Positions 14,883 through 41,181 of a DNA stretch of 64,000 bases are shown here, in pieces. A program made the translations under genes and the position numbers. Position 1 is the first letter of the stretch. The number at the start of each line of letters is the position of its first letter. The notes under the pieces were generated by a model, which worked only from the letters and a program-made list of their open reading frames with translations, did not search any database and was not told where the DNA came from. Source of the stretch: Nemertoderma westbladi (taxonomy: Eukaryota > Animalia > Xenacoelomorpha); assembly GCA_032718475.1 (NCBI GenBank), contig JAUCBJ010007204.1:85154-149153 (forward strand). The letters run 5' to 3'.

Positions 14883-15429
14883 TGTGACGGGATCCGAGAG
14901 GATCCCGGTTTATCCGGTGTCGCTTATGTACGCGTCCCCGCCGTGTGAATGAAAAGAGCTGTTGTTCCAGTGTCGTTATTATGGACTGATATATATATAA
15001 TACAGAGTGATAGTAGATAGCACAGTTAACCGGTATACTGAATGATATGTGATTGGTGACGGCGGTGATGGTCTAAATTGTCACCATACTACCGTGACTG
15101 TAGTGACAGTCTGAGATAACTGAAGTGAATGGATAGCACGACCGGTAATATATTGCACGGTGGCCTTATTGCTACTCAATCGATGCCTTTCCCCCCTCTG
15201 ATTGGTTGGTATCCCTGTTGGCACCCTTTGGAGTGTTTCCCTTCGCTCCCTGTGTTCTCTCTCGGTTAGGGGTTTGGCCCCTGACCCCTATTGTGTGTGT
15301 CTCCTTTGGGGCCTATTGTCCCCGTTTACTGGGCTGACACGAGGTTGATTGGTAATCAAGCTCGTGCTCCCAATATTGCTTTATGGCTCACTCTATGGGT
15401 TTGTGTTAGCGGAATTGGATAAGCTAACA
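14883..15429 (-). repeat. 3' LTR of element B
   Basis: Direct repeat of 21149-21695; adjacent to the PPT (plus strand CTCCCCCCCAT). Confidence 0.93.
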
Positions 15430-15829
15430 CTCCCCCCCATGCTATCTTCCCGGTAAGAAGATAGCATCCAACTCAAGTGCGCTACAATTCCGCTGGATCC
15501 CGATCTAGCATCGGGTGTGGGGTGGGTCTATTTTTTCGGAGTCGGCTTTCCAGGCCGCTCCCTATGGGTATGATGTCACTACCCTCTGGCGTCTCGTGTC
15601 GGGCCGATCGTGCGCTTCTCTCACACAATTTTTGTTTCCCCAACACTCTCACCACTCTACTCCAACTCTCGCATACTCCCGGACCTCCTCGTCCCACACT
15701 CTTCCTCTCACTTCTCCTCCCCCACACTTGAATTGCGCCCACGCTCTCTTCGCACTCCGCACTATCACCTCTCCACTCTCTTGTCACTCCCTAAGGCTTT
15801 AATCTCTAATGCTACCCCTGTGCTATCAT

Positions 15830-17330: not shown

Positions 17331-17352
17331 TTTAATTATTTTCTTATTTTAA

Positions 17353-20300
17353 TTAAATAATTATTTTATATTTTGTGCGTGGGAAGGGCGTCTCGCCCTC
17401 ATTCCCACCCCCCTCAGTCCAAAACTTTGGACGACTAAAAACTCTCAGGTGCCCCTTCTTCCAGTAGGCACTCTCCTGCTGCCCTCCTATACGTCCTCTA
17501 ACTCTTCGCCACACTCTCTTCGGTGCCACCTTTGCTGGCCTCCCCCTTCGTATGTGCGCTGGCATTAGAGCCCTCGACGACCCCCGCTCGTCCCTCGGTA
17601 TACGCGGTGTCTGCCCGTGCAATGCCCCCTCGCACTGTGTCCGTCCTGCGTGTGTATGCAACACGCCTCCTCCTTCTTTCCCGACTCCCTTATGTTTGCT
17701 AATGGGCTTCTCTGCCCCTGGTTTAGTCCTTTCATATCCTTTCCCTTTCCAACACTCTCCGGATCTGTGTCCTTTTACCACGCATCGATGACATAGTCCG
17801 TTTGCGTCTGTGTAGGCTACACGATCTCGTTTGGGCAACGCTTGCCAGTACTTACAACTCCTGGTCTTATGGGTTCCGTCCCGATGTAATTGACATTGGA
17901 ATCCTGGATTATAGCGTTTCCTGTATAGTCCTTCACGTATCGCGCTTAGGTTTATATGTACCGATTTAATGTTTTGATTGTCTAGACTCGGCCTACTGGG
18001 TATATTGGGATTGTGTTTATTATATATGGTGTTATTTTCTTTCTGTCCCTGCCACGGTGTGGCCCTGCTACCAGCTAACTGTGGACTAGCAGTCCCCTGT
18101 ACGGCCGCGTGTGGTGGTGACTGTCCGCACGACCTGTTCTCGTCCAGGGAGTTCGATGTTCTTGCTCCTATCGGGGTATATTGTCGATATTGTGATGGGG
18201 GAATGTCACCCTGTCCCCCCCCCAGCCGGTATGTTTGGTACTGGGGTTGATGTTAATACATTGGGGCCCATACGTCTATCTCCAATAACTCCCCCCTCCC
18301 CTGGATATATGTTATGTCCCTGTGTATTATAGTCATGCTGCTGTACCGATATAGGCCTACCTACCTCTCGCCTACCTACCGGTATGTACTCCGCGACTTC
18401 CGGGTTTAATCCCGTCGTTCGCGCTACCCCATCGCCTACTCTATCTCTCCCAGCATGGCCTATAATAGTATGTGCAGTAAGGCCTACAGTATGTCCTGCA
18501 GTCTGCATGTGCCCTTCCGAACCGAAGTTTATTCTTCGCGAATCTCTAGTCTCCCCGCGACTACTGCACTCTCGATCGGCAGCTATATCCCGTCGGGAAG
18601 CTTCTCTTCGATCCCCTCTCCTGTTCTCGACTTTGTATTGGTACCTCCTGTACCCCTCTCTTGGCGTGCGGTGCGTTTCTCCGGGGCGACGGCAATCTCC
18701 CGAAGTTCGACCCCACTGGCTCCCTGACTCCATCTCTACTGTCGACGGTCCGTTATCCGTCCTCGCACTGCTATCGTTCGTGGCGACACTTCTTCTACTA
18801 TCTTCTCTTCTTCTCTTTTCTGTGTAGTATTCCGGCTCGTGAGATCTCTCGTCGACCTCCCGGTTAAACTCCACTGTTCTTCTTCTCTCTTCTGATCGGG
18901 CTCGACGCTTCGTCTGCCCTCTCGCGACGTCAACCTGCCTCTCTCTACTCGATCGCACGCCGCTGGGGATACTCGCAATCCCCCTATTACTCTCCGTCGC
19001 CGGGTGTTGCGGTTTACCTGATTCGGCCCGCGCATTATCCGCTGACGGCTGTGGGACACTCTCTGCCCCCCCTCTCTCTCTACTAACCTCTCGCGGTGGG
19101 GTGCCCGTAGCCCCCCCCCACCCGCCACTTCTAACTTCACTATCTCTTACTACAAGCATACCTCTGCGTCCCTCTTGTGGGGCATTCTCTGCCCCCCCTC
19201 TCTCGCCACTAATCTTATGTGGTGGGGCGCCGGTAGCCCCCCCCCCACCCGCCACATCTAACTTCACTATCTCTCACTTCGTCTCTACACCCCTCTCTAG
19301 TCGACGCACTGTCTCTACTACGGTTGGGTCTATTCACCCCCGCCTCTCTCTCTACTACTGCGTGGCCCATCAGGCCTACTTCGGGTTGGCTCAACCCCGC
19401 TACCCCCTGCCTACCAACTACGTGGCCTACCAGGCCGCCGTCGGGTTGGCTCAACCCTGCCACTTCCTGCCTACTAACTACGTGGCCTACCAGGCCACCG
19501 TCTGCCGGGTTATGTACGTCCGACACGCTCATATTAATAGCACCATTCCCAATATTATTTGTTAAATCAATTAAATTATTAGAATTTGAAACGGGATTAT
19601 TATTTAAATTATTTAAATTACTTAGATCACTACTATTCTCTAAACTTAAATTATTATTCGAATTATTTTGCGGGTTTGAATTGAAATTATTATTTAGAAT
19701 ATTTGTATTTAAATTTAAATTACTACTACCCGGTAAAATATTATTTCCTGTAATAAAGGGATTAGGGTTATCTACTACGGTACTATTAATATTAACATTT
19801 CCTAACGTACTACTATTACTCCCCCCGCCCGTACGGCTACACCAGTTCTGGTTCTCTCGCCCGGTGCCTGTAAGTGGGGTCTCACTCTCTGATATCTCCA
19901 ACCGCGCCAGTTCTAGTCGGCGCCGTTTAAGTTTGGCTTGATATTGCGCAAGCCTCCCTAGCATGGCATGCAAATCATCCCGCCTGCACTCACCCTCTAT
20001 CCCCGACTCTCGCGTATTCTGCCCGGCCAACTCTGCCTCTCTAGCAATCATCTCAAGCCGCCTCGCCGGCTCGCTCTCTACTCCCATCTCTCGCTCTCTA
20101 CACTCCTTGGCTCTCTCTCTAAACTTCTCGGCTTTCTCTCTATACTCCCTCTCCAACTCTCCTGCCTTCTCTGAGAATGCGGTTTCCTCTCTCAATTGCC
20201 ACTCTAACCATTCCTGCTTACTCGCAGCCGTTTCTAATTTATACTCTATGCGTTCACTCTGTCGCACCCGTCTTTCTTTTACGGAGGATGTAGCAGACTT

Positions 20301-21098
20301 ATCGGTTGCGACGGACTCCCGTCGCCCCTCCGTCCCACTAACTTTCCCCCTCTTCCCGGAACTTCCTCCGACCGACGAGACCGAATCCTCGGAATTAACC
20401 TCGGATTCGCCCTCCCCAGGTCTTCTAACTCTTACTTTCACTCCCCGGGCATCGACTAAGTATGGCCCTACGTACACTACGCTAGGTTCCATACCCCCAC
20501 ATTCCCATAGTTCAATCAGTTCGTTGACAACTCCCCTCGCCCTCTCCTCGGCTAGTTCTCTCTGCCCAAAACACACTAGGTGATCAAAGTATCTGTTCGA
20601 CTCACCTAGTCGTCTCCTCAGTCTCACCTCGTCTACCTTCGCCCCCTCCTTGGCCTCTCTCAGTTGCTCCCGGGTCGCGAGGTAGGCCCGTCGAAGTCGA
20701 TCAGAAACCCCGACGTCCTCGTCGCCGACCTCTCTTCCGTCTCTCCGGGTCCGACGTCGTACCGACGGCCCCACCGTCGCCGTTCCGGTGGACCGTTCGT
20801 CGTCCTCGGCCTGTGGCTGGCCGGTGACATCGGTATGTCGACCCTCGCTCCGCGTCGACTCGTCTTTCTCTTCTCCTCCCTTCTCGTCTCCTCTACTCGA
20901 CTCGCTCTCTCATGGTAGACGACCCCCCACATCTTGGTTCGCCGTGTTGCTCGTTATCGACGTAGCGTCAACCTGCGTCGACGTGGTCGGCGTAGCATCG
21001 ATCGGCGTCGTGGGTTCGTATCGTCTCGCCGTGGCCTCGCGGATCGTTAGATCGTCGTCCGGGGTCCGCGGCGGTGTAGTTTCTCCTCCTCTACTCAT
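17353..21098 (-). pseudogene. Gag-like ORF of element B (~1250 aa reconstructed), disrupted
   Basis: ATG at 21098, in-frame TGA at 20910-20912, frameshifts at G-homopolymers (~19240, ~18215). The C-terminal CQLHRDGTHKTRSC...LCHRCVVKGHRSGEC has BEL/Pao-type knuckle spacing. The rest is R/E-rich and N-rich low complexity. Confidence 0.7.
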
Positions 21099-21148
21099 CT
21101 TGTCTTTGGTGGCTGTCAGCTACAGTTCGGCAGGCCTAGAATTTAGAC

Positions 21149-21695
21149 TGTGACGGGATCCGAGAGGATCCCGGTTTATCCGGTGTCGCTTATGTACGCG
21201 TCCCCGCCGTGTGAATGAAAAGAGCTGTTGTTCCAGTGTCGTTATTATGGACTGATATATATATAATACAGAGTGATAGTAGATAGCACAGTTAACCGGT
21301 ATACTGAATGATATGTGATTGGTGACGGCGGTGATGGTCTAAATTGTCACCGTACTACCGTGACTGTAGTGACAGTCTGAGATAACTGAAGTGAATGGAT
21401 AGCACGACCGGTAATATATTGCACGGTGGCCTTATTGCTACTCAATCGATGCCTTTCCCCCCTCTGATTGGTTGGTATCCCTGTTGGCACCCTTTGGAGT
21501 GTTTCCCTTCGCTCCCTGTGTTCTCTCTCGGTTAGGGGTTTGGCCCCTGACCCCTATTGTGTGTGTCTCCTTTGGGGCCTATTGTCCCCGTTTACTGGGC
21601 TGACACGAGGTTGATTGGTAATCAACCTCGTGCTCCCAATATTGCTTTATGGCTCACTCTATGGGTTTGTGTTAGCGGAATTGGATAAGCTAACA
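21149..21695 (-). repeat. 5' LTR of element B
   Basis: Direct repeat of 14883-15429, flanked by TSD GATAC. Confidence 0.93.
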
Positions 21696-23449: not shown

Positions 23450-23801
23450 TAAATATATTTTAATACAAAACAGGTCGAACGCAAAGAGGCTTATAATGAA
23501 GACGAGTACTGCATTGATTATATTCCTATAAACCACCTGGCTTTGCATATTGAACGTGCGTTTGGAAATAAGTTCGTGCTACCCTTCCGTGGGTGGTAGA
23601 TGTCGCGGTTATGTATTGGTGGGTGGGGGGAGGGGGGGGGGGGGTGCAGATTAAAAGGGGTGAACACGTACTGTCCTCCCCCTTTCTTTGATTAATTGGT
23701 GGTGTGGGTTAATCTCTCATAACCTGATTTTGTGATACAGTCGCACAATTTTAATTTGTATCTCATAACTGGGCCTCGTGCTGCGCGAAGGCCCCACGAA
23801 C

Positions 23802-24375
23802 GTGTGGTGTACCGCAAGGTAGTATATTAGGTCCTCTGCTTTTTGTATGCTATGTAAATGATATGATAAGTAGTATAGATCCCGATTTTAAACTCATTTT
23901 ATATGCCGACGACAGTGCTCTTATTTTCTCTCATAAAGATCCTATCCATATTTCCCAAAAATTAAGTGCAGTTCTAGAATCCTGTAATGAGTGGTTGGTT
24001 GATAATAAGCTATCCATTCACTACGGTAAAACTGAAAGTATTTTGTTTGGTTCCAAAAGAAAGTTAAAGAAGGTAACTAAGTTTGAAGTCACTAGTAATG
24101 GACATAAGATTGAAAATAAAAAGGAAGTTAAATATTTAGGCGCCACATTGGATAACTGCTTATCAGGAGAAAGCATAGTGAAAAATATTTTCTCGAAAGT
24201 TAACAGTAGGCTTAGGTTTCTATACAGAAATAAAAATAGTTTGAACACCGACTCCCGCAAGTTACTTTGCTCTTCTTTAATACAGTGTCACATGGACTAT
24301 GCGTGCTCTTCTTGGTATGAAGGCTTAACCAAACAGCTTAAATGTAAATTACAAGTAGCTCAGAATAAAGTAGTA
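23802..24375 (+). pseudogene. 5'-truncated LINE (L2/CR1 group) RT, left part, interrupted by LTR element D
   Basis: CGVPQGSILGPLLF...ILYADD...KTESILFG...KYLG motifs. The frame breaks exactly at the TSD TAGTA. Confidence 0.9.
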
Positions 24376-25626
24376 TGTAAAAGCTTCTGTGGGATATAAC
24401 TGGCCCTTTTGCTTTGCAATCCAGTTTCCCCCCAGGCGCTGGAATACTCTAAAAAGCTCTCTAACTATATATATATCCCCCTCGCCCGCAAGGTACCGTT
24501 ATAGGTGTTTTAACGGACATAAAAGTCATTCTTCTATATACGTGCTTTGGAGGACATGGTAAGGCAAAAAACCCGCAATGCACCAAATACCCTTGCACAG
24601 CTTAGCCTTGATGATTCAGATTACGACATCTAACAGCTGGTTGCTGACATGGAAACGGCCATTGGACACATGGTTCTTTGTTTGCTTAACAGCCAATCAG
24701 AGCGATTTTTTCTGTCGATGTGGAGCTTTTGGCAGATCATGCTAGGAATGTCAGTCTTACTGTTTTTCTTGTTACTGTTGTGTTGTTTCTATCTAGGCCA
24801 GGAACACCGGCTCTAGAGTCAATTCGTTTTCATACTTTAGAAGAAACATTAGTAGGCTTAAATTATAGAGCGTATAACTGTTATCGGTGCAACTCCGTTC
24901 AGTCTTTCATTATCGGTTCAACATACATTGTTGTGCTGCTGTTTGCTGTTGTCATATTTTGTATCAGTTGGTTGAATATTATTTGGATAACATCTATAAA
25001 GAACCCAAATTTCCCAATTTTCTTGATACACTACAGTTTAGAGAGACGGGTTATATATAGCGATTGCGACTTATATTATTGTGGTTTGTAGTGAATTTAA
25101 TGCTATTTGATAAGCACTACATGAGTCCGTTGCTGTTCTCTTTATATATGATAAAATTCATTGACGGTCGGCAAATTAGTGAGCAGTATTGTGTGTTACC
25201 GGTAGTGTGCATGATTGTGGCTGATAACTAAGCATTTCCTAAAGAATGCGCCTCATACGTGAATCATAAGCCTTACCGACTTACCGTTGTGATTAGTATA
25301 AGTCATATCTCTGTTTACCTAGATAGAGCGCCACGTCCTAAAGGAACTGTTAATATTTCCCGAAAGTGAATAATATTAGTCAGAAATTATTTATTAACGA
25401 TCAATCGAATAATACAGTAAGCTTACACTGCAATAATAATCTAAGCCCTCAGAATCCAGTCTCCCGGGTATATCCAGCGGGTGAATGGACGCGCACTAGG
25501 CTGGCTTCTGCTAATGTTGTGTTTATTGGTATTAAATATTTGTCAACTTCTAAAGTCTATTTGTAAACCAAAAGACATATAAATTTTGGCAGGTTAAACT
25601 GCTAAAGGTCTTCAAAAGCGCGTACA
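24376..25626 (+). repeat. 5' LTR of copy D
   Basis: TGTAAAAGC...GCGCGTACA; direct repeat of 50969-52219. Confidence 0.95.
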
Positions 25627-25637
25627 ATAACAGTTAT
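25627..25637 (+). promoter_or_regulatory. Non-tRNA primer-binding site candidate of copy D (ATAACAGTTAT)
   Basis: Directly follows the 5' LTR, has no TGG, and is the exact reverse complement of ATAACTGTTAT at 24874-24884 in the LTR. Confidence 0.7.
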
Positions 25638-26029
25638 TGTCTTTATTGCAGTAAGCAATAAAGTTGAAAGTACCGGTAAACCTGAACCGGTACTTCTGTA
25701 GGTCAGTAGGCCCAACTGCCAGAACCGGTACCGCTGTAGGTCCGTAGGTCCAACTGCCAGAACCGGTACTTCTGTAGGTCCGTAGGCCCAACTGTCCTAA
25801 CCGGTACTTCCAGTATAAGTACATTAGTATTATTCGATTTTGATTATTGTATACTGGTAGGTCTTAGTATTTAATCAGGGACGGCCGCCCTGGTTTTTTA
25901 TTGAGATTTTACTTATTTCTGTCGGTTTTATTTACATGTAAGTTAATATTGAGCTGAAGACGTGTAAGTCTGCTCAGATTGTTCAGATAATTGTAGGCCG
26001 GACTGTTGTCGGATTGTTGTTGGGTTTGG

Positions 26030-26500
26030 AGAGATTACTGCGTGTGTAGAGTTTGTCCGATAGAGTGCCAGTTAGTAAGTTGGGGCAGCCATAGCTGTAA
26101 GGTCAATCCCCTCTTAAAGAATAAGTCGTACTACCGTGTTAGAACGCATACTAACTAACCATTTTGGAATCTGCACATACTGTAGTTTATTTAGGCTTGA
26201 CAGTATTCTGCCAGCGTTTTGGCCTGTGTTTGTTTGTGTAGTCTGTTCAGGTACCGTAATAGTTATTACTCAGATATTTTGTAGGCTGGATTGTTGTCTA
26301 GCTATTATTAGGTCTGAAGAGATTGCTGCGTGTGTAGAGTTTGTCTGATAAAGTGCCAGTTAGTAAGTTGGGGCAGCCATAGCTGTAAGGTCAATCCCCT
26401 CTTAAAGAATAAGTCGTACTACCGTGTTAGAACGCATACTAACTAACCGTTTCGGAATCTGCACATACTGTAGTTTATTTAGGCTTGGTGGTAGTCTGCC
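26030..26500 (+). repeat. ~288-bp-period direct repeat in the 5' leader of family 1
   Basis: GTTAGTAAGTTGGGGCAGCCATAGCTGTAAGG... at ~26071 and ~26359. The homologous pair in copy C is at ~40390-40500 and ~40680-40790. Confidence 0.85.
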
Positions 26501-26504
26501 AGCG

Positions 26505-27673
26505 TGTTTGCGCTTTTAAGACCTTTGACAGTTTAACCTGCCAAATTAGGATGTCTTTTAGATGATATATAGTCTTTAGCCTATGACGAGTATTTGATAC
26601 ATTACATTAGCCGAAGCCAGTCTATGCGCAATCATTCACCCGTTGGATATACCCGGGAGACTGAGTTCGGAGCTTAATGATTGATGGTGTAAGCCTACTG
26701 TATTATTCGACTGATCGTAATATATAATCTCTGACTAATATTATTCACTTTCGGGAAATATTAACAGTTCCTTTAGGACGTGGCGCTCTAAATATATAAA
26801 CAGAGTTATGGTTTAAACTAGACACAACGAAAAGGCTATAGATTTACGTATATGGCGCATTCTTTAGGAGATGCTTTGTTATCAGTTACGATCATACACA
26901 ATGCTGCACAATACTGCACACTAATCTGCCGACCTTCACTAAATTTGGTCACGTATAAAGAGAGCAACATACAATTTATGTTGGGCATATGAAATAGCAT
27001 TAGATTCACTTCAAACCACTTAACATAGGTCGCAATCGTTTATCTGTAACCGGTCTCTCTAACCTTTAGTATATCAAGAAGGTGGGGTGTCTGACTATTG
27101 ATCAGTATTCCGATATAATATTTCATCAACCAATATAATGAATAACCGACAGTAAAAGCAGTAATATCAAGGTATAAATGATTATTAAGTGAATGAGTTA
27201 ACTCGGTAACTCGCTTGTGCAAATCGTTTGATAACAGATATACGTTCTATAATTAAGCCTACTAATGTAAGACTAAAGACTGAAAACACGGAGGTGCCAA
27301 AAGCCGGTGTTCTTAGGCTCTGGGCAAAAACATAACACTGAACTACTGAGTTCTGTATCCACCTCCAACACAGAGTCAAAAAACGCTCTGATTGGTCAAC
27401 CGAACAACGAGAGAACAAAGAAACAAAGAAATGTCGACGTGGCAATATCAGCTGTTAGCCGTCGTCATGGTAGCGACACTGTTTTCAAGAGTATCTAGCT
27501 TATCGCGTCACGAGATTGCGGATTATGTCCTCTAAAGTACAAATACAGAAGAAATGACTTTTATGTCCTCTAAAACACCAGTACAGCAAGGACACGGCCT
27601 TTTTATGCCTGGTAAACCAACTACAGAGTACTTTAAGGGAAAATAACCGGTTAATGACGCAAAAGCTTTTACA
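26505..27673 (-). repeat. 3' LTR of copy C (1169 bp)
   Basis: Direct repeat of 41182-42357, which carries an extra 7-bp duplication. Confidence 0.95.
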
Positions 27674-27751
27674 CCGCTCCCAGAAAATGGGATTTAAGTC
27701 TATAAAATATAACAAATCACAGTTTCTAAAATATAAAAATACTCTAAACAG

Positions 27752-30700
27752 TTAGTCTTTCTTACGCGGACGGCGTTTACGCAGTTTTTTGAGGCTAGCA
27801 AGAGTCCTTTTCTCTTTGGGGCGAGCCACTTTACTAGGAGGGCTGTAACTCCTGGGTGAAGGGTGCAATACAATTGCATCAGAAGGTTTCGGATTGCGAT
27901 CGGTGTATCCGCCGGTCGAGGTACCTGGTTGATCGATATCAACTTCCGTGGAGCGAGGTCTAACAGCCTTTAGGGCGCGCCTCAGGACAGCAGCTCCTAC
28001 GGGTCCTTGACGGGTTGTCTGGGCAATGGCGGTAGGCGGACCGTGGGTGGTAAGAAACTTCCTTGGTTTAATAGTTCTTTCCAGCTCGCGTTCTCGGGCT
28101 CGATATTCGTAGGGCCGTCGAGATACTTCCTGCAACTCAGGGTGCGAGTTGATAAATAAGTCGCCATACTCAGGGTCTTGACGGATATAATTGATCAAAT
28201 GGTATGAAGTAATATCGTTAGGATTGACGTTCCTAAGGTATCTTCTAACAAATTTAGTGGAAATACACTCACCAACACGCTTCATTAGCTCGTAACTCGG
28301 TACGCGTGTTTTTTGTTCCACAGACGCTAATAAATAAGGATGGAACGCGTAAACTCCCTCGTAAGAGCGTCCAGGGTAGTATCGATGACGGGACTCACAA
28401 TGTAAATCCGCGTTCGCTTCCCAAGCTCGAATGTAGCGCAGGGTAATCATTTCATCTACGCTCTCTAAATCGTGATTAAAGGGGCAATTATAACTGGCAT
28501 GTCCTTTAAGTTGACAGTGGTGGCATTGAGTCATAAATTGGGGGCAGACTGCAAAAATATGAGAGTTATTAAGTCTGCAATACGCACAATATATCTCCAT
28601 CATTGGTTGTTCGTGGAAATAGGAACAGGGTACGTCTGAGTCCATAGGAGTGAAATGGTCTCTCGATGCGCATAATCGACAACGTTTTCGAGAAACATAG
28701 TTAGCGTGTCGATAATCGTATGCGGTGAGACATTGTGGACCTTGATACCACTCTAAGACGTAGTCGTTATCGCTGCTCCGGGGCGCTGTAGGCTGAATCG
28801 CTTCAGCTTCTAAGCATATTGGTTCGTCTTCCAATTGCATAGCTGAGGTAGGTGCGGCTGTCTCCGCAAGCGGACCCACTGTCTGAACTTCGACGACAGA
28901 ATAACCCGTGGGTATTCGGGGTCTTTGTATAACAGATGAGTGCAAGTTCTGTATACAAACGTCCTGAAAAAGGGCAAATCCCGCGCTGTTTAGCTTCTCC
29001 GCCGCTGAGTCTCTCAGGCTGAGTTTGGTCAGAGCGCGGTCCTTGAACTGACTATCAACGTTACGGAACGGAGTCAGAAAGCGCCTGAAACATTCAAAGC
29101 GGATGAATTTATTGTGTTCATCTAACTTGGCGAGTTTGGTTCCAAGTATTAAGGGATGGGCGCGTATGGTACGACTGCACACATCGGCTAGCCAACCGGC
29201 AAGTGCTGCGTTTTCAAAGATCGTGTATATAGCTAAGGAGGGACGAAGTGGAACACTCATAAAGCTATACACGGCGCCAGGTGCGGTCAATGGTCCATCA
29301 AAGTATAAACGAGAATAATGATCTCCGTATACTTGTTGGTAATTTATAGGATTTCCAACCTTGAAATTCCATCCGTATTCTTGAAAGGCAAGATGTCCGA
29401 TGGAGGTTCGTTGTACTTTAGTAATTCCGCTGGGTGTATTGGCATACGTAGTGCGGAAGAAACCTCGGCCTTCTGCCCAAGGAGCAATCAGCTGAGTATC
29501 AACGAAGGGGTATGGAATGTTCTCCATATTCCGAAAGTCGTTCTGTAGGTCTCCATAAACAGCTGAGCCGATTTTAAGGATTCCTTCGTTAAACAGCATC
29601 TCGAGCACGGGTTGGGGTAACATCGATCCATCGATACCCATGGCCGGCTTGCGCTCGGTGTCGGTGACGTAACGCTGCGCGAGTTCAAATTGTCCATGTC
29701 GGAGTTTCTTTTGTGTCTCAGTAAGAGTTTCAAAAGAATAATCAATAACGTCGGAACACGCTCGAGTAAATACGTGGGTAGAACCAGCGAGTCCTCGTAT
29801 GTGTATCATCCGCGTAGTTCCAAGTTCTCCAACCGGAACGCTACCTTCGTTATCGTAAGTGACAACTCCATACATCTCGATAACGTTAAGAGTTTCGTTC
29901 CACTCTTTAGTGGCGTTTTCGAGTGTCATTCCCACAGGATGCCACAAGGTAGCACATTCGCTAGCATTAGGCAGGTCTTTATACTTTAAATATTGTGTGG
30001 TATATGTTTCCACATCTCCATATCGTTGTATTCTTTCCTCCTCGAATAACACATCAAGATTCCAGTGCACTAAACGAGTTTTGATGAATCCATCAAGATT
30101 ATACGGAGGTATTGTTTCTTTCTCTATTCTGGAAACATTATATGGTTTTCGAAACGAGTTTACTTTAACTAACTGATCCAGATGTTTCTGCAGTTGTTCG
30201 AGTTCGACAAGATCGAGAGGATTTATTAACGGTAGAAACTTCAGACTATGTGTAGGATCTTCCGGTTTTACCATGTAATATTGTTTTAGATTGACGTAAT
30301 AAGGGTGATCTTTGATCCCATAAAACGAGTCCGGTAAAGGTCTAGCGCGTATGTTTACATCGTGTACCATGCGACGGACAAGATCTGCTCTATTGTCCGG
30401 AGGTTCAACGAGTATACCATCGACACGAGCGGGTTCGATGGGCGGACGCTGCAACAGAGGAGCGTCGGCGATAAGATCGCGAGATCTTAGGTTGATATCA
30501 ACCGGTTGGGGTTGTGCCGTCGCAAAAAGTTTGTCTCCGAAATGGGGAACCATCGAGGGATGAAGAATGGTTTTAGAGTAGAGATCCGTCATAAGGATTT
30601 GCGCTTCGGGTTGAGCTAAAGCCGCTTCTTCTCTCTCATCCAGTTCTATATGTCTCTCCTCGAGCTGATTCTCCTCCGCTTGTTGTTGTAGACGCTCATC

Positions 30701-31166
30701 TAGAAACTCTTGTAAAGAGTAGGTTCGTCCACGTTCGATGTCCTCCTCGAGATTTTGTATTTCTCTATCGAACTGGGGTAAAGCTAATTCCTTCACCGCT
30801 TGGACTTGTTGCTGCAATTTACGCTTCTCCAAACAATCGTACGTTCCCTTTCCGTTGGGTATGATATTTAAATAAAACCATTTCCCTTTCAGTATCCACA
30901 TCGTCCGTGTCGTGTAAATCGATAGGATGGCTGGTAGTTAAGAAGTCCATATACGTACCATTACGATGCGTATAGCGAGCGGTGAACTTTCTATAGTCCA
31001 ATTCACGCGTAAGTTGCTCCGGGGACATCGGCGGTTCGATATAACGACCATCATCCTCCGTAGTAGTTGGACCAGCGTCGCCGCGTATCAAGCTATCGAC
31101 AAACGCTTGTAAAGGTAGAGTATATCGCTCCCTGATGCCAAGATCATCTTCTATCAACTCAGTCAT
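27752..31166 (-). pseudogene. Extra ORF2 of copy C: DEDDy-like exonuclease plus CCHC fingers; C-terminal ~1030 aa uninterrupted, N-terminal deletion/frameshift
   Basis: ATG at 31166 (MTELIEDD). An ~845-bp deletion relative to copy A at ~30853 has CGGAA microhomology. Then an open frame with VVTYDNEG, LKIGSAVYGD, FVDTQ, PLRPSLAIYTIFE, CRLC/CAYC/CHHC fingers and a KKLRKRRPRKKD tail. Confidence 0.88.
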
Positions 31167-32809
31167 ATCTGCTATGAGTTTATCAATATTATAATGAGTC
31201 TATATATATTAGGCTAGCGGGCGTCGCTGCCTACCCCTCTTTTGCCCCCGGACAGTGTAAGATCCTCAGCGCCGATGTACCGTCGTCGCTGTGCTTTCGC
31301 CAACGATGTAGCTACACAACGACAACGATAACCGGCACAAGTCACTTAACTGTCCGTCCCAAAGGCTTAGATGTACTGCAGGTTCTTCTTGGAGAGTTAG
31401 GGTTACTTTCACAATTGCGACTCGCTACTGTAAACACACCTTAGTAGTAACATTCACCTACAAACGCACAAATTCAACACAACTGCAACAAACTGCACAC
31501 ATTCGGGCCATTTGTCCGTTAGTCAGTACCTTCCAGAATGTCACTGTATTTATTATGTATCCTTGGATACTAGCAGTGCGCTATTTATTCCCTATGCTAT
31601 TCAATGGGGCATGCTTTCTATTGTTCTTTTAACTCACTTCTAATTCTAGCGTGGTTGTTGCCATGGTGACATTATGGAAAGCTAGCGGTAGAATTAGGGT
31701 AATTCTCATGCATACAGATCTGGGATGCTATTTAATAGTAATTCTTTAATGGTCAATATCCCCTTTATACATGATTCTATGAATTTTATCGGCTATTGAC
31801 TATACATTGGAGATTCTCGCACACAAATACACTTAATAGAGTGAATCTCCGCTCCCATGATCTATTAATTAATGGAATTTTGGGAATGTTATAAATTGTA
31901 CAAAATGACAATTTATTAAATTCATTGAAATATCTGAATTTAAATTTATTCCCGTAAATTTTATTATTTAATGTTAAATAGACACAATTTTATTCCAGAA
32001 CGTGTCTGGGGACTGGGATCCTTGATTCTAGGAATTTTGTCCTTTTAAGAGTATCGGTAAGTGCTACGATATCTTAATCGACTAGAATTTTAAAGGATCT
32101 GATATTTGACAGATTTTGTAAATATTAATAATTAATATTTAGGATGGGCACCAGTTTATTCCAGAACTTGTCTGGGGACGTTAACCATTGATTCTAGAAA
32201 TTTGTCTTTCAAGTATATCGGTGGGTGCCGCGATATCTTAATCGACTAGAATTACAGATGGTCAAAGGGTTTAACAGATTTATTTTGCGTTATACGCTAC
32301 TGTTAAAGGGACATCACGCTACTATATGTATTATTTAATATACGGTATGAGAGCAATATCGCACGAAGCAATGTCAGTGTGAAGAGGCAAGTCGTTTCCA
32401 AGGTCTACCCAGAGCTTGGTTTAGCCGAGACACGAGGATCTGAACTTTGCATTCCTAATACTCTGCCTACCAATAATACTTAAATATAGTAGTGGCTTTA
32501 TTGTACTTTAATAAGTACGGATATTTCATCTTACTGTAGTCACGTATTTATAATATGATACGGACAGTAAGGAAAGAGAAAAATAATTATTTCTCGCCGT
32601 CGCACTAAATATATATTATAAGTAATTACGTACGTAATAAACACTAATATATTGCACTAATCTACTAAATGATCACTAAAATAACATGTTACTAAATAAA
32701 ATTAAATAAAACGATTAAAATAAAATTACATAATAATACATACATAAATATAAAAATAAAACAAATACAAATATAAAATAATATGGTCACACACCCACTC
32801 CAGCCGTTG

Positions 32810-35800
32810 TTAAGTTGGGGAGTCCCTAGATGTTTGTTGGATTAGGGAGGTGGTCGTGGGAAGAGTATCTTGTCTCCCATAGTTTCCGGAGAGTTCTCTG
32901 TCTCTTTCCAGTAAACATAAACGACCCACTGGGCGATTGAGCTGCTGCGTCTCGAAGACAATTCCCGGTTTCTTGAAGTTACGTCGCATGACGACGAGTT
33001 CTACCGATCGCACCAAACCGTCATCCGAGATGTGTGTCTCGATTATACGACCTGTCTGCCACCTCTTACGTGGAAGATCTACATCCACAATAAGAACCAT
33101 GTCTCCAGCGCTAACGTTTTCTTGCTGCGCAAACCACTTAGTTCGAAGTTGTAGCGTGGGCAGATAATGTTTTTCGAAATGGTCAGCGAAACGACGGGAT
33201 AACAACTGCATGAGTTGCCAAGTTTGTCGGCAGTATTCGTCTCCGTCTGTGATTTCCGATTGTGGGAGCATGGCTACAGGTTTCTTCAGTAGGAAGTGCG
33301 CGGGTGTTAGCGCCTCCAGGGAATCGGGACTCGATGAGACTGGCATAAGCGGTCTCTCGTTGAGATAGGCGGCGATTTCTTCCATTAACGTCCGCAAAAG
33401 TTCGTCGGTGAGATAAGCGCGGCAAGGCACTATAAAATGAAATGCCGTCTTCACACTTCTTATTAATCTCTCCCAACTTCCTCCCCACCAAGGGGCGTCG
33501 GCGGCGTTGAAGGTCCAACTAGACGCTGTTACTCGTAGTTGGTCGTCCACCTGTCTTTGGTTCCAATCTTTGACGTAAGCTTTGATTTCATTGTTGGCAC
33601 CAATGAAGTTTGTTCCCTTATCAGATCTCATCGTGTTACTAGTGCCAAAGCGAGCGATCTGTCGTCGTAAGCTTAATAGAAAGCTGTTGGTAGATAAATC
33701 GTTCACCATATCGAGATGGATGGCTCTACAAGTCATACAAACAAAGATTACACACCATCTCTTGACTATAGTCCTAGCACGATATACTTCAATAGGGCCA
33801 AATAAATCCACACCGGTATTAGTAAAGGGTGGTTCATAAAAGCTTACTCGTTCCCTAGGTAATTCTGCCTCTCTCTGTGTTAAAGGCCTACTGAATGCTT
33901 TCCTACAGGGTATACAGTTCCTAAGAACTTGGTTCAGAGCTCTACGGGCTTTATAAAAATAATAGCGAGTTCGAATTTCGCTAAGAACTCGTTCTCTACC
34001 AGCATGATAAAGTTTGCTGTGAACATCTACAATCATCTTGACTTGTATTTCAAGATTTCTAATGAGTATGGGGAACTTAGTATCAAAGGATAATGGGGCA
34101 TTCGTTAACCTTCCTCCAACACGTATCAACCCATCTATCATTGTGCTAGAGAAACGATCCCTTAAGCGCATCTGTGGATTTCTCAACAACAGGAAATACT
34201 TATCGGAATCTTCATAGCATTGTAAGAGTCTCAGCATCTGTTTGTTGGTTTCTTCATGCTCCTGATAACTGATCTTCTCCTTCAGAAACTTGTCGGGTAC
34301 CTTATATTTGGGAATGTCTTTAATAACATGGACCTGCACTGATGTGATTGGAGCGGTATCACCCTTTGTTTTCATCCCAGAGTAGTGATGGTGAAAACAT
34401 CTCTTTAAATATGTAACGGCCTTACAGAGTCGATTCCAGGAACTGTAGTGATGTATCGCTCTCTGCAGAAGTGGTGAGAGTCCTTGCGAGACGTCTGGTA
34501 TGCCAGATTTCCAATCTTTATCACGGATTTCCACAATGGGTTTATTTGTGGCTGTGGGTTTCTGATCCAAAGCGTCGTCTCCGGAAGTATGTAGTACAGA
34601 CAGATCTACTGTGGGTTTGAATAACTTCGATTTACTCGCCTGAGTTTTAGGTTTGACTTTCTCCGCTCCCTTGGCCTGTCTAATTTCTGCTGTAGTAAGA
34701 TGAGGAGGCCATTCTTCTTCTTCTTTGTAGAGGAAGTCGGGTCCACCTAACCAGTCTGGAGTATCTACCAGTTCTTGTGGAGTTGCTCCCCTGGAAGCGA
34801 TGTCCGCTGGATTAATCGTTCCGGGGCAATGTCTCCATTGATCCATCGTCGTGCGACTGAGTATAATAGCTACTCTGTTGGTAACGAAGACGCTGAACTG
34901 ACAGACTTCATTGGTTATATACTCCAACACGAGTAAAGCGTCGGTCCAATAGACAGTTTTCTCCAGGGGATAGTCGATCTGTTCTGTTACATTCCGGCCG
35001 ATGGCTGTAGCGTATAGAGCCGCTTTTAACTCCGCTTGAGGAACTTTCAACTTGTTGTTTATCAATGCCTTAGAGGTAACCAAGGCAACTTTGATTCTGT
35101 CCGGAGTTTCCACCCTTAGGTAGGCTACTATACCTATTCCCATATCGCTGGCGTCTCCAAACACATGGAGTTGATATGAATACGTAGGGAGAACATGACC
35201 AAAATATGAACGGGAAATTATGAAGTTTTCGATGGCTGGTAGAGAATCTTCCCATTTCATCCACTTCTTTAATAATTCTCCCTTAAGTGGATCGTCCCAT
35301 GAGTGGCTTTCAAGCCACATTTGTTGTACTAAACTCCGAGCAATCAATATAACTGGGCTAATAAATCCCAATGGATCGAAATAAGTGCTCAGGATACTTA
35401 AACAAATCCGTTTAGTCCGAACTGGATTATCTCGCTGTTTTAGTTGGAAAAACAGGATATCTCTTTCTGTGTCCCATTTCAAACCAAGGGTCTTAGTTTC
35501 TGGGAGATCATCCTTTATTAGATCTAGGTCTTTTGTTCCTCGATCTTCTACCGGGATCGACTCCAGAAACTCACGGGAGTTGCTGGTGAATTTAGTTAAT
35601 CGAAATCCACCTTTCTTTAAGCATTCTACCGTTCCTTTAGCGACCTCAATGGCTTCTTCTACTGATGGAAGGGACTTCAGATTATCGTCCATGTAGATGT
35701 CTCGTTTGATATTGTCGATCACTTCTTTAGAGAAGGCGTCTCGGTTGTCATCCGCAGTGGTGCGCACCACGGAACAGGCGTTTGAAGGGCTCGAGATTAT

Positions 35801-38800
35801 CCCAAAAGCTTGGATGGTCATCCAATACTCCACAGGTTTCTTATTGAGGTCTCCTTCAGGCCACCACAAAAATCGTAGGCTATCTCGATCCCTATCCAGC
35901 GCTTTGACTTGTAAGAACATGCCTTCTATATCTGAGGCGAAAGCAATGGAGTATTGTCTTAATCTTAGTAGTATTCCCAACAAGGATTGGAGTAAGTTGG
36001 GTCCGGGTAACAATTCAGAATGGGTCCGGGTAACAATTCAGAATTAAGAGATTGGCCCATATAAAGGGCGGAACCGTCAAACACCACTCGTACTTCATGG
36101 GGTTTACCGGGTTTGGGAACGTAATGGTGAGTTAAATAATACGTTCTCTCAGTTATGGGTGTTTCTTCCGGTACTAGCTCCGCATATCCCTTGCTAATAA
36201 ACTTCTTCAACTGTGTTTGATATATTTCTTTAGCTGAAGAATTTGCCGTAAGGCGTCGATGTAGTTGAGCAATTCTTTTCTCCGCCAAAGGTCTGTTGTT
36301 AATGAACTTTGGTTCTCGCTTTCGGAAAGGAAGTCCGATCTCATACCTACCTTGATCTTTAAGAAAACAAGTAGTTGTCGCTTGGATCTGCTTGGCTCTT
36401 TCTTCCTCCACCGATAGGGCCTTATCGTAGGAGTTGGGCTCTACGACCTCTTGAGTAAAGAATCTCACGGCGTGTTCATCCCGAGTCTTGGCATTATAAC
36501 GTTCAATGACGTCATTAAGCTCATCGTTATAGTCGTCTCGCTCAGATGGGAGAAGGAGTTGACATAAGTTCACTTGATTTTGCCAAGTCTCGCTTTCCTT
36601 AAGGAGATCGATGGCATTCTCCTCATCAAAAAGTTGATGTATATCGTCGTTGTCTGAGGAGTATGGAGTTCCCTCAGTTGGATCGTCGAACTCACTGTTC
36701 TCAACTTCCCATTCTCGCGCTTGATATACCTGATCTTTCGGTAATCTTTCCATGAGAGTTCTACGGGAAGGGCCAGTAAAGTACCAACCTACTCTAGTTC
36801 TTCCCGCATAAACTTGTAGAGGTTGCGGTTGAGCAGGTCGTTTCTCCAATGTCTCGAGCGCTTCATGCGCATTTTGACCGATGAGTATTTGCACTCCAGG
36901 ATAATCTGTCTGGAATCGAGGTATCTTAAGATGTTGGATGCTCTCATCCTCGTCCCAATTATAAAGGTCTGCTTGAGTATTAGCGAAGTTCTTTATAGCC
37001 ACCATTTTCACTGACCTTATGCTATGTTCTCCTAGTTCGTCCTGGGGGGTGGACAACGCACCTACATAATAATCCGCGGTTACTGTGGATTTCCAAACTT
37101 GCATAATTCCTGACATTTTTAGCTTAGTTCGGAACTTGGGTTGTCCAGCGAATATGTCTTCGGCTAGCTCTTTGTCGATGAATGTTCCTGTACTACCGGA
37201 GTCAAGGAGGGCGTTCACTACATAACTCCTTTTTGGTCCGTGGACCCTTACCTGTACCACAGGAAATTCTCTAATCCCTACATTGGAAGTTGGCGCTTTC
37301 CAAGATGGTTGTCGATCAGAAGTAGTTAGAGCGAGGTCAATGTCTGTATCTTTTTCATAAATGAGTGCTCGATACACTGTGGTATTTATCATGTAACAGG
37401 ATTCGTTTTCGTCGGAGAACTCGTCTGTATAGAATCCTTCCATCTCAGATTGATCAGTGTCGTTCACATCACTGAACTGGACATGTAGTTCGGAATCACT
37501 TACCTGACTCGGACTATTTCGCTCGAATTCAGTGTGCAACAAGATATGATGTTTCGCACCGCACTTGGCACATCTTGTGTCAGAGTAACAGGTTCGCCGT
37601 TGGTGTCCATGTCTGAGGCAATTATAACACAACCGCTTATCCCACATGACTTCACGTCTCTCAGTTAATGATTTCTTTAGAAATTCATCACACATATTCA
37701 AGCGATGGGTCCCATCACATAGCGCACATTTCGGTTTGATGTTACTCACCTTACTTTGCGTAACATTGTGCACACTTGCTTTTTCTTCGGGCTTTCTCAC
37801 CTGAATTCTCTTGGGAGACGTAGGAGGAGTTTTTCTTACCTGTTCTCTCTTGTCATTTGTTCGAGTCATAGTCACTATGAATATAATCAACTTACAATGA
37901 GTAAACTAATAACAACTATATATGGATAATATATGACCTATCTATACACGAATATATTTCGTACAGTTGTTCATCAAATTTAGCCTGGTTCGTAGCCCTC
38001 ATTTCCACATCGATGGCATCCAACACACGCTGGGCTCCTTCACTATTAGGGCTAAGCCCCTCTAACCTTCTCCTCAACTCTTCATCACCTAAAAAACGTT
38101 GATAGTCTGACAGATAGATGTCAATGGCATCCCTCTTATGCGGTTTCTCTGCCATCACTTCACTTTCCACTTGGGAAAAAGTAGCGTCTGTTGATTCTCC
38201 ATAGGTTGAGCGCTCCTCCAGCTGAGCTTTCCACTGAGCTGTTCCTTGAACCTGGCGACTCACCCGTTGAAACCAAGTCTTTACGGCAACTTGCAACGAC
38301 GTGTCTTGTCTTCTTTTAGAAGCCTCCTCAAAGGCAGATAAGATTAGTCTGATTCGCAGAATTCTTTCTCTAACTTGATAAAGCAGTTGTCCCTGCTCTT
38401 GAGGTCCTTGAGGTTGTTGAAACAGTTGTTTTTCTACTCTCTCCATAGAGCTGAAGAATCCCTGTGCGTATCCGGCTGCGGACCTCTTCCACACAGCTGG
38501 ATCGATGGTTTCCTTGGCTACTCCCATCCGGTGTATGTCTTCCCAGGCAGCTTCTGATAAAACAAACGGGAGTCCGGGTCCGGGGAAGTTCCATTGCGAC
38601 TCGACCATAGACTTCAGTTCTTCCCTTGTGTATCCCTCATAACTATCTTTAGTTGATCGCTTACTTCTCGCCCAATCGATCTGGTGTTCTTCCACCGCGA
38701 TCAATAACCTAGTGAGTACGGCTGCAGGAAGGATGAGAAGGGGATCCGAATAAACCGCATCCGTCGTCCTTGCTCCGCGCTCGGGTGTCAGCTCTACAGT

Positions 38801-39082
38801 ATCTTCACTACTGGAGCTGTCGGGCCGCTGAGAAATAAGTTCTTGGCTCGCGGGTTGTTGCTGTTCCGCTGCTTCTTGGTCCCGCTTGACCTGAGCTCGA
38901 GTGCCTATGATAGACCTACGACGTTGGACCAGCCTATGTTCTGTTATTACTACTGGAGGGATGACCTTCCTCACAGTGGGAGGTGAACTGAACTTAGGAC
39001 TAGATGGTTCTACACCTCTATCTGAGTCGCAGATAGTTACATCTAATAAACTGTCTGACAGGTTCTGCTTAGTATCAGACAT
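32810..39082 (-). pseudogene. Gag-Pol of copy C, disrupted
   Basis: Three ORF pieces (37916-39082, 35965-37890, 32810-36013). The gag core is replaced by ~100 bp of AT-rich filler near 37865-37970. A ~22-bp tandem duplication at ~35998-36042 shifts the frame. RT YMDD, RNase H and IN are intact in the last piece. Confidence 0.92.
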
Positions 39083-41170
39083 GTTTGTTTACACAGTTGA
39101 ATGTCCACTGCTATATTACAGTCTAAGCAAGTCTAGTAGTTCAGCACCAACTGCTAGCCTAATAATTAATCACCGATACTGCCACTCAGTGTAGCGTGAT
39201 ATATATATAATATTAGAATACCGGTATGCTTATGGTATATATAAGTATAATTATTAACTAGAATTAATTACAGAATACCGGTATGATTTCAGCTTAAGTT
39301 TATGAACATAAAGATAATAAGCCTATTGTAAATACCGGTATATCAATTATTTTAAATAACTGAATTTCTGAATTTTAAGGGTTACTTGGTTACTTTAACT
39401 TACTTTATTACCGTTATTTAAGCAGTGGTCCAACTGATATTGAGACCTAGTTGTTGTATGGCAGGCCTACTATTTATAAATCGTTTGAGTTGATTTATAA
39501 TATATATATACCCGTTTAATGGGTTTTGTCAATGTTTGAAATAAATGTTATTATTTCTGGGGGAGTCACTACACATAAGCTGTGCGCTCTCAGTGGAGTG
39601 CTACTTGTTAGACATTAAAACAAATAATTCTAATTTACCTAAGTTACTTAATACTACAAATTACGTACAATTCGGGTTGAGATTACAATCTCTAAATAAA
39701 CACAAAAATTTAATTACAAATACACAAATACAAATTTTTAGGGTAATTTTACAAGAAGTCTACTAACCAGCCTAACAAAGGGTTAGAATATCTGGTTATT
39801 ACAACGGACAGGTTACTACGGTATTTGAAAATAATAAGTAGTAGTAAATATACTGCGTTGTCCAGATAGGAAAATACCACCGTCTGACGACCTATAACCG
39901 TATCGCTATAGGTACTACGTTATGTATCACGGAGTGTCCCTACCTAGAAGTTAATTACCGCGGTCTACCAGAACCAACGTGCCTATTAACCACTTTACAA
40001 CACATATACACTGCCTACACACTAATTGCTTTCGGAAAGCACTGTACACTAAACCCTAAATTAGGTACAAGTACTTGTACAACAAATAATTAGTAGTTAA
40101 AAATACTTGAACAGCTAAAAGAACCACGGTATCTGCCGGAGTGACCAAAGCACAAAATCTCCAGTCTTTACCTACGCCGAGCAGCCCTGATGTAGTACCG
40201 GGGTTAGTTTAACTATAACGGTATGTATAACAAACACAATTACTGTAGGAATAAACTTGGGGATATGAATGTTGCGAATAATAGCATAAACTCTGAATAA
40301 TAAATATTACGCTACGCGTACAAACTACTCAAACAAAATGCAGACCAAATACTGACAGACTACTATCAAGCCTAAACAAACTACGGTATATGCAGACTCC
40401 GAAATGGTTAAGTAGTATGCGTTCTAACCCAGTAGTATGACTTATTCTTTAGATGGGGGTTTACCTTACAGCTATGGCTGCCCCTACTTCCTAACCGTTC
40501 TTTATCGGACAGATGCTTTACACACACCGAAATTTCCTCAAACCCAACAGCAGCCAGACAACTATCCAGCCTACAAATTATCTAAATAAAATTATACGCT
40601 ACCCGTACAGACTACACAAACAAAGTACAGACTAAACGATGGCAGACTACTATCAAGCCTAAATAAACCACAGGACATGCAGACTCCGAAATGGTTAAGT
40701 AGTATGCGTTCTAACCCAGTAGTACGACTTATTCTTTAGATGGGGGTTTACCTTACAGCTATGGCTGCCCCTACTTCCTAACCGTTCTTTATCGGACATA
40801 CACTCTACATGCACTGCAATCCGTTCAGACCTAATCAACAGTTAGCCAACAGTCAAGCCTACAAATTATCTGTACAATCTGAGCAGGCTTACACGCCTTC
40901 TGCTCAATACTGGCCTACAAATAAATAAAACTGACAGAAATAGGCCTAAGTAAAATCCCAATAAAAACCAGGCGTCCCCGATTAATTATTAAGACCTACC
41001 GGCATATAATAATCAAATCGAATAATACTGCTGTACCTGTACTGTTGTAGGTACCGGTCCGGATGATCAGGCAGTCAGGCCTACTGGTTACCGGTCGACC
41101 GGTACTTTCGACTAGATTGCTTACACTGCAATCCAGAAGCAATATCTGTTATTGTTTCTGGATTAGATCA

Positions 41171-41181
41171 ATATCTGTTAT
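41171..41181 (-). promoter_or_regulatory. Non-tRNA primer-binding site candidate of copy C (sense ATAACAGATAT)
   Basis: Directly follows the 5' LTR and is complementary to the sense ATATCTGTTAT at 41915-41925 in the same LTR. Confidence 0.7.

Follow-up and report, generated by a model that had tools for sequence, protein, structure and literature searches.

In a 64,000-nt stretch of Nemertoderma westbladi DNA (contig JAUCBJ010007204.1, positions 85,154-149,153 of the forward strand; hereafter the window, within which all coordinates are given), retrotransposons of the BEL/Pao type carry an accessory gene in the env slot. This gene, open reading frame 3 (ORF3), is conserved and under strong purifying selection, and it is predicted to encode an RNase D/DEDDy-type 3′-5′ exoribonuclease with RNA-binding zinc knuckles. 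The window comprises long terminal repeat (LTR) retrotransposons nested within each other, including three copies (A, B and C) of one BEL/Pao family, family 1, and a second BEL/Pao element, family 2, enters at the right edge. In family 1, the LTR contains a site which pairs exactly with the primer-binding site (PBS) position and co-varies with it, the signature of Tf1-type self-priming. ORF3 therewith appears to be a real and selected, apparently undescribed variant of a known cargo type that was found together with an unusual priming signature, its function being predicted from sequence.

The main ORF3 frame of copy B (Table 1), to whose 1061 codons all residue numbers refer, follows a Pao-type pol, and about 80 nt separate its end from the polypurine tract (PPT) and a TG...CA LTR. 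This confirms the original prediction of an ORF between integrase and PPT in the env position. All motifs, the three Cys/His fingers and the basic tail that had been named there could also be located in this frame: VVTYDNEG at amino acid (aa) 358, LFNEGILKIGSAVYGD at aa 448, FVDTQ at aa 478, SIGHLA at aa 512 and PLRPSLAIYTIFE at aa 563, followed by C-x2-C starts at aa 753, 784 and 805 and the tail at aa 1050-1061. The predicted length of about 1420 aa has to be corrected, as 27752-30853 corresponds to 1033 codons and 1420 is the span of the broken frame of copy A. There, in the sequence as assembled, ORF3 is split into four frames between the ATG and the stop. Copy B is missing about 830 nt of the N-terminal part (7612-8443 of copy A), with a 5-nt microhomology at the deletion junction, and copy C is missing the whole nuclease segment. 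The long N-terminal region of about 690 residues is specific for family 1 and gave no Pfam match. It contains a further Cys/His cluster (C-x2-C ... H-x-H ... H-C-x2-H) at 7721-8050 (+), likewise without a Pfam match.

Nothing in family 1 ORF3 resembles a viral fusion glycoprotein, for which a signal peptide, a transmembrane anchor and an internal furin site would be typical. The maximal hydropathy over 19 residues was 1.19 in the frame of copy B and did not exceed 1.34 in any piece of copy A; family 1 ORF3 therefore contains neither a transmembrane segment nor a signal peptide, as originally predicted, and is not an envelope protein. No furin-type site was found inside family 1 ORF3, the sole motif of this kind being part of the basic tail. 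The hydropathy of family 2 ORF3 peaks at 2.08, at a place that corresponds in the alignment to core strands of the predicted nuclease domain.

Comparison of copies A and B revealed 341 synonymous and 133 non-synonymous differences over 1033 codons, corresponding to a ratio of non-synonymous to synonymous rates (dN/dS) of 0.081. For the nuclease segment (aa 331-625) the ratio was 0.04 at 96.9% aa identity and for the knuckle segment 0.054. As the value for the segment of reverse transcriptase (RT), RNase H and integrase is comparable (0.065), ORF3 was needed during the replication history of the element as much as pol. ORF3 is thus a conserved coding gene under strong purifying selection.

This gene is not confined to family 1, which, like the self-priming signature described below, had gone unnoticed in the original prediction. 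In family 2, an intact frame with the same D-E-D-E domain, three knuckles and a basic tail lies 1.2 kb downstream of the integrase end, and its product is homologous to family 1 ORF3 (pairwise E=2e-9). As the integrases of the two carrier families are only 32% identical, ORF3 is an old accessory gene. A HMMER search with aa 300-860 of ORF3 against 1.84 billion representative proteins yielded one match, P0001 (648 aa, E=6.2e-7; pairwise E=4e-17 to family 2 ORF3). P0001, a singleton encoded on a 9.4-kb contig, is built alike, with a nuclease-like domain, a linker, three CCHC knuckles and a basic tail. The three lineages are 25-29% identical, with 29 of 189 aligned columns being invariant, among them D362, E364, D463, D467, D480, Y571 and E575. 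Six of the 20 acidic columns of copy B are invariant, including all four predicted metal ligands, and so is the ExoIII Tyr. Word-indexed homolog searches with ORF3, P0001 (self only) and profile A1 yielded no further members. Metagenome contigs scanned with ORF3 and pol, viral contigs scanned with A1, P0001, A8 and the LTR motif, and plasmids and phages searched by tblastn contained nothing relevant, and none of six window proteins was present in the protein collection by exact-sequence look-up.

The conserved domain of ORF3 very probably has a DEDDy (DnaQ-like) fold, judged from several weak but converging searches and from the residues kept in the three lineages. A DnaQ-like RNase D/DEDDy domain followed by CCHC knuckles is what had been predicted from the outset; only the word "established" used for it was too strong. 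The best NCBIfam match of the domain was RNase D (E=0.016), and the sole match of profile A1 in the PDB was E. coli RNase D (E=1). P0001 weakly matched DNA_pol_A_exo1 in Pfam (E=0.2), and in the ESM Atlas it scored 0.94 to PF01612 clusters (25 of 30 matches), the window's own domain only 0.83. PHROGs gave matches only at E values of at least 0.058, one of them labelled exonuclease. Of four profiles derived from 69 bacterial PF01612 domains (combined, RNase D, WRN-like and short RNase D), the combined and the RNase D one matched nothing but A, B and P0001 in a set of 638 frames (RNase D: three matches at E<1, best 1.1e-4). HHalign against the 69 domains gave a probability of 91% and a score of 47.8, compared to a maximum of 18.4 for 30 column shuffles and 11.8 on reversal; with family 2 added as fourth row, it gave 89% and 45.8 (40 shuffles, maximum 19.7).

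With regard to the active site, D-x-E of ExoI is invariant in the three lineages and falls on canonical columns in 36 of 48 MAFFT settings; the ExoII Asp, D463, is likewise invariant and does so in 48 of 48. By its sequence, the nuclease is a predicted D-E-D-E, DEDDy-derived variant and not a canonical member. As Glu replaces Asp at the fourth acidic site in all three lineages, we can only infer exonuclease activity; yet the whole site is kept at 25% identity, which argues for catalysis, and the predicted nuclease is likely to be active despite this Glu. At the adopted ExoIII site, P0001 keeps the canonical spacing W-x2-P-L-x3-Q-L-x-Y. An alternative, earlier ExoIII (QQVYGD), favoured in one MAFFT alignment, was rejected, since P0001 has no acidic residue there.

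Several results weigh against this assignment. ExoIII reads Y-x3-E instead of Y-x3-D in all three lineages, and all five sites fall on canonical columns in 0 of 12 and 7 of 48 MAFFT settings, the placement of ExoIII being alignment-dependent. The WRN-like and short RNase D profiles gave no matches among the 638 frames and HHalign probabilities of 1-17%, and family 2 ORF3 was detected by none of the four PF01612-derived profiles. Profile searches, of the kind that had been suggested as a check, were divided: HHalign supports PF01612, whereas Pfam gave no DEDD match for window proteins of either family and no curated cut-off was reached. NCBIfam contained no DEDD match for family 2 ORF3, profile A9 had no matches in the PDB, and the PDB matches of the single sequences, that of family 2 among them, included no DEDD protein. 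Structure prediction, also suggested at that time, was likewise divided. The unguided single-sequence AlphaFold model had a predicted local distance difference test (pLDDT) value of 30 and no usable fold. A guided model (mean pLDDT 54, core blocks 77-88) reached Z 11.9-13.2 against Pol I exo, RNase D, WRN, Nibbler, Rrp6 and Exd1, which indicates compatibility only. Its alignment includes canonical DEDDy rows and was picked from 48 trials for motif fit, hence these structural matches are not independent proof.

The second peculiarity of family 1 concerns its priming. In both B and C, the 5′ LTR is immediately followed by 11 nt that are fully complementary (11/11) to a site in the LTR, and the single difference between both copies is mirrored on both sides so that the pairing is kept; cross-pairing between B and C reaches 7. 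Dinucleotide shuffles of the LTR reached 11 nt in 5 of 5000 cases for B and in 3 of 5000 for C. TGG, as expected for a PBS complementary to a tRNA end, is absent from the 40 nt after the 5′ LTR in both copies. Self-priming has been assigned where a stretch of 10 nt or more that starts 0-5 nt after the 5′ LTR is complementary to the LTR (PMC6317226, partial text); here, 11 co-varying nt were found at offset 0 in both of the copies with a PBS in the window. Exact pairing and co-variation of LTR site and PBS position make up a Tf1-type self-priming signature. The LTR site of copy A, whose PBS is beyond the window, is one base off that of copy C and G-U-compatible. In an alignment of the LTRs, the candidate primer site forms the end of a conserved block, immediately beyond which similarity is lost. 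Within the window, the initial 13 nt of this block occur six times, once per LTR including that of family 2, with 0 occurrences expected by chance (a post hoc pattern). The match of the block to the family 2 LTR was beaten by none of 1000 shuffles for A and C and by 13 of 1000 for B. ARAGORN found no tRNAs and Rfam only one chance-level match in the window, which gives no hint of a tRNA-like primer encoded by the element.

A primer built by splicing is not needed in family 1: among 4864 (B) and 4944 (C) candidate introns no junction-spanning match longer than 8 nt was found at offset 0, and an 11-nt match at offset 5 was seen in B but not in C. In the family 2 region 57730-57770 (minus strand), a donor-like AG|GT is part of the LTR motif common to both families, and the presumed primer end is preceded at 8 nt by an acceptor-like AG. 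A splice-built primer is possible there, judged by these motifs.

How the predicted enzyme and the priming signature might belong together can be outlined as follows. Probably, the element RNA would fold back, or a second RNA copy would pair with it, and thereby prime minus-strand synthesis as in Tf1. A cut would be made 3′ of the primer site, the knuckles would hold the RNA, and the nuclease would remove the unpaired 3′ nucleotides up to the 11-bp duplex, where it would stall, so that the RT is left with a paired 3′-OH exactly at the LTR boundary. We tentatively favour this possible role of ORF3, trimming the 3′ end of the element's own primer RNA, because self-priming needs a 3′-OH at the edge of the duplex, which is the LTR boundary, because RNase D types trim the 3′ tails of structured RNAs (PMC5408684), and because zinc fingers hold the substrate in the RNase D of Trypanosoma brucei (TbRND). 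Rather doubtful is the wider proposition of a BEL/Pao clade that has given up tRNA priming in favour of its own LTR RNA and, from the env slot, makes a D-E-D-E exoribonuclease with knuckles that is dedicated to maturing this primer. Several points speak against a function in primer maturation: no copy of family 1 in the window has an intact ORF3; enzyme and primer are linked by co-occurrence in one family only, the PBS of family 2 lying beyond the window; Tf1 generates its primer end by its own RNase H and requires no extra nuclease (PMC7175516, partial text); and the basic tail in all three lineages may indicate a nuclear site of action rather than the particle.

This tail would fit a different role, in which ORF3 is an active exoribonuclease directed against host silencing, trimming or destroying PIWI-interacting RNAs (piRNAs), small interfering RNAs or their precursors, probably in the nucleus and unrelated to priming. 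Its cellular relatives Mut-7 and Nibbler act on small RNAs, and Nibbler and Exd1 are among the matches of the guided model. The 1.2-1.6 kb of non-coding DNA separating ORF3 from pol suggest that ORF3 is probably expressed apart from the particle proteins, and the recurrence of DEDD domains on unrelated LTR and Penelope-like retroelements (PMC5408684) suggests a role independent of the mode of priming. However, the window holds no direct evidence for such a role, and the strong purifying selection gives no hint of an arms race, for which, however, two copies are too few as a test. Mature piRNAs are, moreover, 2′-O-methylated at their 3′ end, which is usually protective. On balance, an action against silencing, the main rival of primer trimming, appears rather unlikely.

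Less probable still is that the DEDDy fold was kept in a non-cutting form and that ORF3 is an RNA-binding adaptor like Egalitarian or Exd1, carrying or protecting the element RNA. The change from Asp to Glu at the ExoIII metal site and large insertions in the domain would fit an adaptor, as would the knuckles, which resemble the retroviral nucleocapsid (P0001 against HIV-1 nucleocapsid, E=1e-4), and inactive DEDD derivatives are known to work in piRNA pathways (PMC5408684). Yet, four acidic positions and the Tyr being invariant at 25-29% identity would be unexpected for a dead site. A similarly low probability, if anything a shade lower, is given to an enzyme that acts on DNA, either trimming those 3′ ends of the cDNA that are untemplated or mispaired ahead of integration or serving the RT as a proofreader. 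DEDDy enzymes include DNA exonucleases, the WRN and Pol I exo domains matched the guided model at Z 12.7-13.2, and the basic tail could accompany an integration complex. Furthermore, PBS and PPT of family 1 abut the LTR without spacer, so the cDNA ends must be exact. The unguided sequence signals, however, favour RNase D over WRN-like profiles, and CCHC knuckles bind single-stranded nucleic acid, which is typical of RNA enzymes (PMC7797062, partial text). Finally, the strong profile match covers just 48-59 columns around ExoII, which, along with the missed cut-offs and the poor unguided model, would be compatible with a superficial DEDDy resemblance, another fold or an unrecognisable env. As four independent libraries converge on RNase D/PF01612, as the invariant residues occur in the expected order and spacing, and as family 1 lacks the membrane segment, signal peptide and internal furin-type site of an env protein, this is very improbable.

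As to the carriers of ORF3, Pfam identified DUF1759, a weak Asp protease, Peptidase_A17 (E=6.5e-36), Integrase_H2C2 and DUF5641 in family 1 gag-pol, in the BEL/Pao order gag, protease, RT, RNase H, integrase. Together with the YMDD of the RT, the TG...CA LTRs, the PPT and the target-site duplications (TSDs), this identifies family 1 as BEL/Pao LTR elements. Gag-pol of copy A is uninterrupted over 1886 codons. Copy B is nested in the leader of copy C, which has lost most of pol, as well as the nuclease segment, by internal deletions. The LTR pairs are near-identical (copy B: 1161 of 1168 aligned bases, 99.4%; copy C: 1244 of 1249, 99.6%) and the TSDs comprise 5 bp; copies B and C are therefore recent insertions. 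Tandem duplications of about 288 nt and short repeat units are present in the leaders of both copies, downstream of the PBS position (40292-40871 and 25979-26511).

The non-coding spacer of 1.6 kb between pol and ORF3 of copy A (5662-7287, plus strand) is 86-97% identical to that of copy B per 250-nt window, although 46% of ORF3 synonymous sites differ, which points to strong constraint or to recombination between subfamilies. Two AG just upstream of the ORF3 ATG could be splice acceptors. In the spacers of all three copies a unit of about 120 nt is duplicated (6200-6495, plus; 31962-32262, minus; 48353-48650, plus). This unit folds as a long hairpin with weak covariation (3 of 31 pairs), and it is possible that it serves as a packaging or regulatory signal.

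Apart from these elements, fragments resembling RTs of non-LTR (long interspersed nuclear element, LINE) type are present on both sides of copy C (23755-24399, minus, and 52147-52620, plus; translations judged by eye), and copy C appears to have inserted into a LINE-type element. A different young LTR element (14883-21695, minus) has 547-nt LTRs with 99.6% identity and the TSD GATAC. Its coding content is limited to gag-like frames and a knuckle, a pol frame of at least 150 codons being absent. No TGG follows directly after its 5′ LTR, where 9 nt complement its own LTR, short of the 10 nt mentioned above. A Ty3/gypsy pol with an open frame of 1319 codons lies at 53648-57607 (minus), its gag apparently being split by the insertion of family 2. 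In the family 2 LTR itself, GC-rich repeats of 95 nt that have inverted arms inside them form an array (57808-58919, minus).

Table 1. Features of the BEL/Pao elements, their ORF3 genes and their priming sites, in window coordinates
Feature	Position	Strand	Remarks
Family 1 copy A	1-12913	+	5′ end beyond window; gag-pol open 1-5661; 3′ LTR 11628-12913; candidate primer site 12125-12135
Copy A ORF3	7288-11549	+	1420.7 codons; breaks near 7720-7875 and near 9312-9334, stop at 10878-10880
Family 1 copy B, whole element	26505-42357	-	LTRs 26505-27673 and 41182-42357; TSD CAGCG (5 bp)
Copy B gag-pol	32810-39088	-	Three frames (37916-39088, 35965-37905, 32810-36037): knuckles, protease, RT (YMDD), RNase H, integrase
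Copy B ORF3, main frame	27752-30937	-	1061 codons stop to stop; homology to copy A over 27752-30853
Copy B ORF3, start-proximal piece	30819-31199	-	Out of frame with the rest; ~830-nt deletion between, relative to copy A
DEDDy-like (D-E-D-E) exonuclease domain (predicted), copy B	29138-29929	-	Predicted catalytic codons start at 29854 (D362), 29848 (E364), 29551 (D463), 29227 (Y571), 29215 (E575)
Three Cys/His knuckles, copy B	28484-28681	-	One long variant, then C-x2-C-x5-H-x4-C and C-x2-C-x4-H-x4-C; zf-CCHC_3 E=0.0022
Basic C-terminal tail, copy B	27755-27790	-	Present in both other lineages too
Copy B PBS position	41171-41181	-	11 nt directly after 5′ LTR, no TGG; exact complement of LTR site 41915-41925
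Copy B candidate self-primer, 5′ LTR	41915-41925	-	LTR nt 433-443; same site in 3′ LTR 27231-27241
Family 1 copy C	24376-52219	+	LTRs 24376-25626 and 50969-52219; TSD TAGTA
Copy C PBS position	25627-25637	+	11 nt; exact complement of 24874-24884; compensatory change relative to copy B
Copy C candidate self-primer, 5′ LTR	24874-24884	+	LTR nt 499-509
LTR motif common to both families	57757-57770	-	Just upstream of candidate primer; in family 1 at 12097, 24846, 27256, 41940, 51439
Family 2 ORF3	59386-62010	-	Intact; 874 open codons, with the ATG at 61986; D-E-D-E domain (predicted) as in family 1, three knuckles, basic tail
Family 2 BEL/Pao integrase end	63228-63998	-	DUF5641 E=6.4e-30; 32% identical to family 1
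Family 2 3′ LTR (inferred)	57612-59220	-	1609 nt; preceded by PPT, TG...CA ends

Nuclease cargo of LTR retrotransposons has been published mainly for rotifers, with no function shown, and is extended here to BEL/Pao, where ORF3 has been kept by selection as tightly as pol and in two distant families. The intact natural copy in family 2 and a candidate substrate, the 11-bp primer duplex, make a nuclease role directly testable; if the D-E-D-E site were active, it would add to what is known of DEDD chemistry. In literature titles and abstract openings, neither an exonuclease ORF3 nor self-priming was found to be reported for BEL/Pao elements, within a scope that excludes subscription journals, Repbase reports and supplements, where an earlier description may exist. 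In the BEL/Pao surveys PMC3118150 and PMC6238403 the terms "exonuclease" and "PBS" do not occur, nor do "exonuclease" and "self-prim" in PMC13524379.

The closest precedent, already named in the original prediction and borne out by the literature, is found in bdelloid rotifers, in which the LTR elements Juno and Vesta as well as Athena/Terminon carry a DEDDy-type ORF3 with a DEED site (PMC5408684; cited as such in PMC5718144 and PMC6338049, both partial text). For these proteins a role in RNA 3′-end processing or silencing was proposed, their function being untested there (PMC5408684). Like rotifer ORF3, the protein described here is a non-env product encoded downstream of pol, a predicted DnaQ-like 3′-5′ exonuclease and free of transmembrane segments. 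Compared by description only, it differs in its BEL/Pao carriers, in DEDE instead of DEED, in three CCHC knuckles and a basic tail, in about 690 extra N-terminal residues (family 1) and in the purifying selection that was demonstrated. A mostly rotifer cluster was the second ESM Atlas match of the window domain (0.83), which is a lead only. The domain combination itself resembles TbRND (PDB 7c42), in which a DEDD domain is followed by C-terminal CCHC fingers that grip the trimmed RNA, an arrangement called very unusual (PMC7797062, partial text). TbRND trims the 3′ ends of small RNAs and shares with ORF3, in which it is predicted, a DEDD-type domain followed by tandem CCHC fingers. Unlike this cellular, mitochondrial D-E-D-D enzyme with its four fingers, ORF3 has three knuckles, a longer linker, the ExoIII Glu and a retrotransposon as carrier, and the knuckle match between both types (E=2.1) does not support common descent.

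With respect to priming, the known counterpart is Tf1, in which the transcript's initial 11 bases anneal to the PBS and are freed by RNase H (PMC7175516, partial text). Self-priming is documented for Tf1, Tf2 and Tj1 of the Tf1/sushi group of Ty3/gypsy and predicted for the plant Tcn1 and TAR lineages (PMC7175516, PMC4600332, PMC5341516 and PMC6317226, all partial text). Family 1 shares with Tf1 an 11-nt PBS directly after the 5′ LTR which is complementary to an LTR site, and the lack of a tRNA-end complement. Unlike Tf1, its pol is of the BEL/Pao type and thus outside the Tf1/sushi lineage, and its candidate primer site lies 433-509 nt into an LTR of 1.2 kb; Tf1, in turn, cuts its primer with RNase H and lacks an exonuclease ORF3. 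Within BEL/Pao, finally, roo and mosquito elements with Chuviridae-like glycoproteins bear an env gene (PMC13524379, partial text). ORF3 resembles these genes in being a third ORF at the same position and in the same superfamily, but unlike them it encodes a soluble predicted enzyme that has no glycoprotein features.

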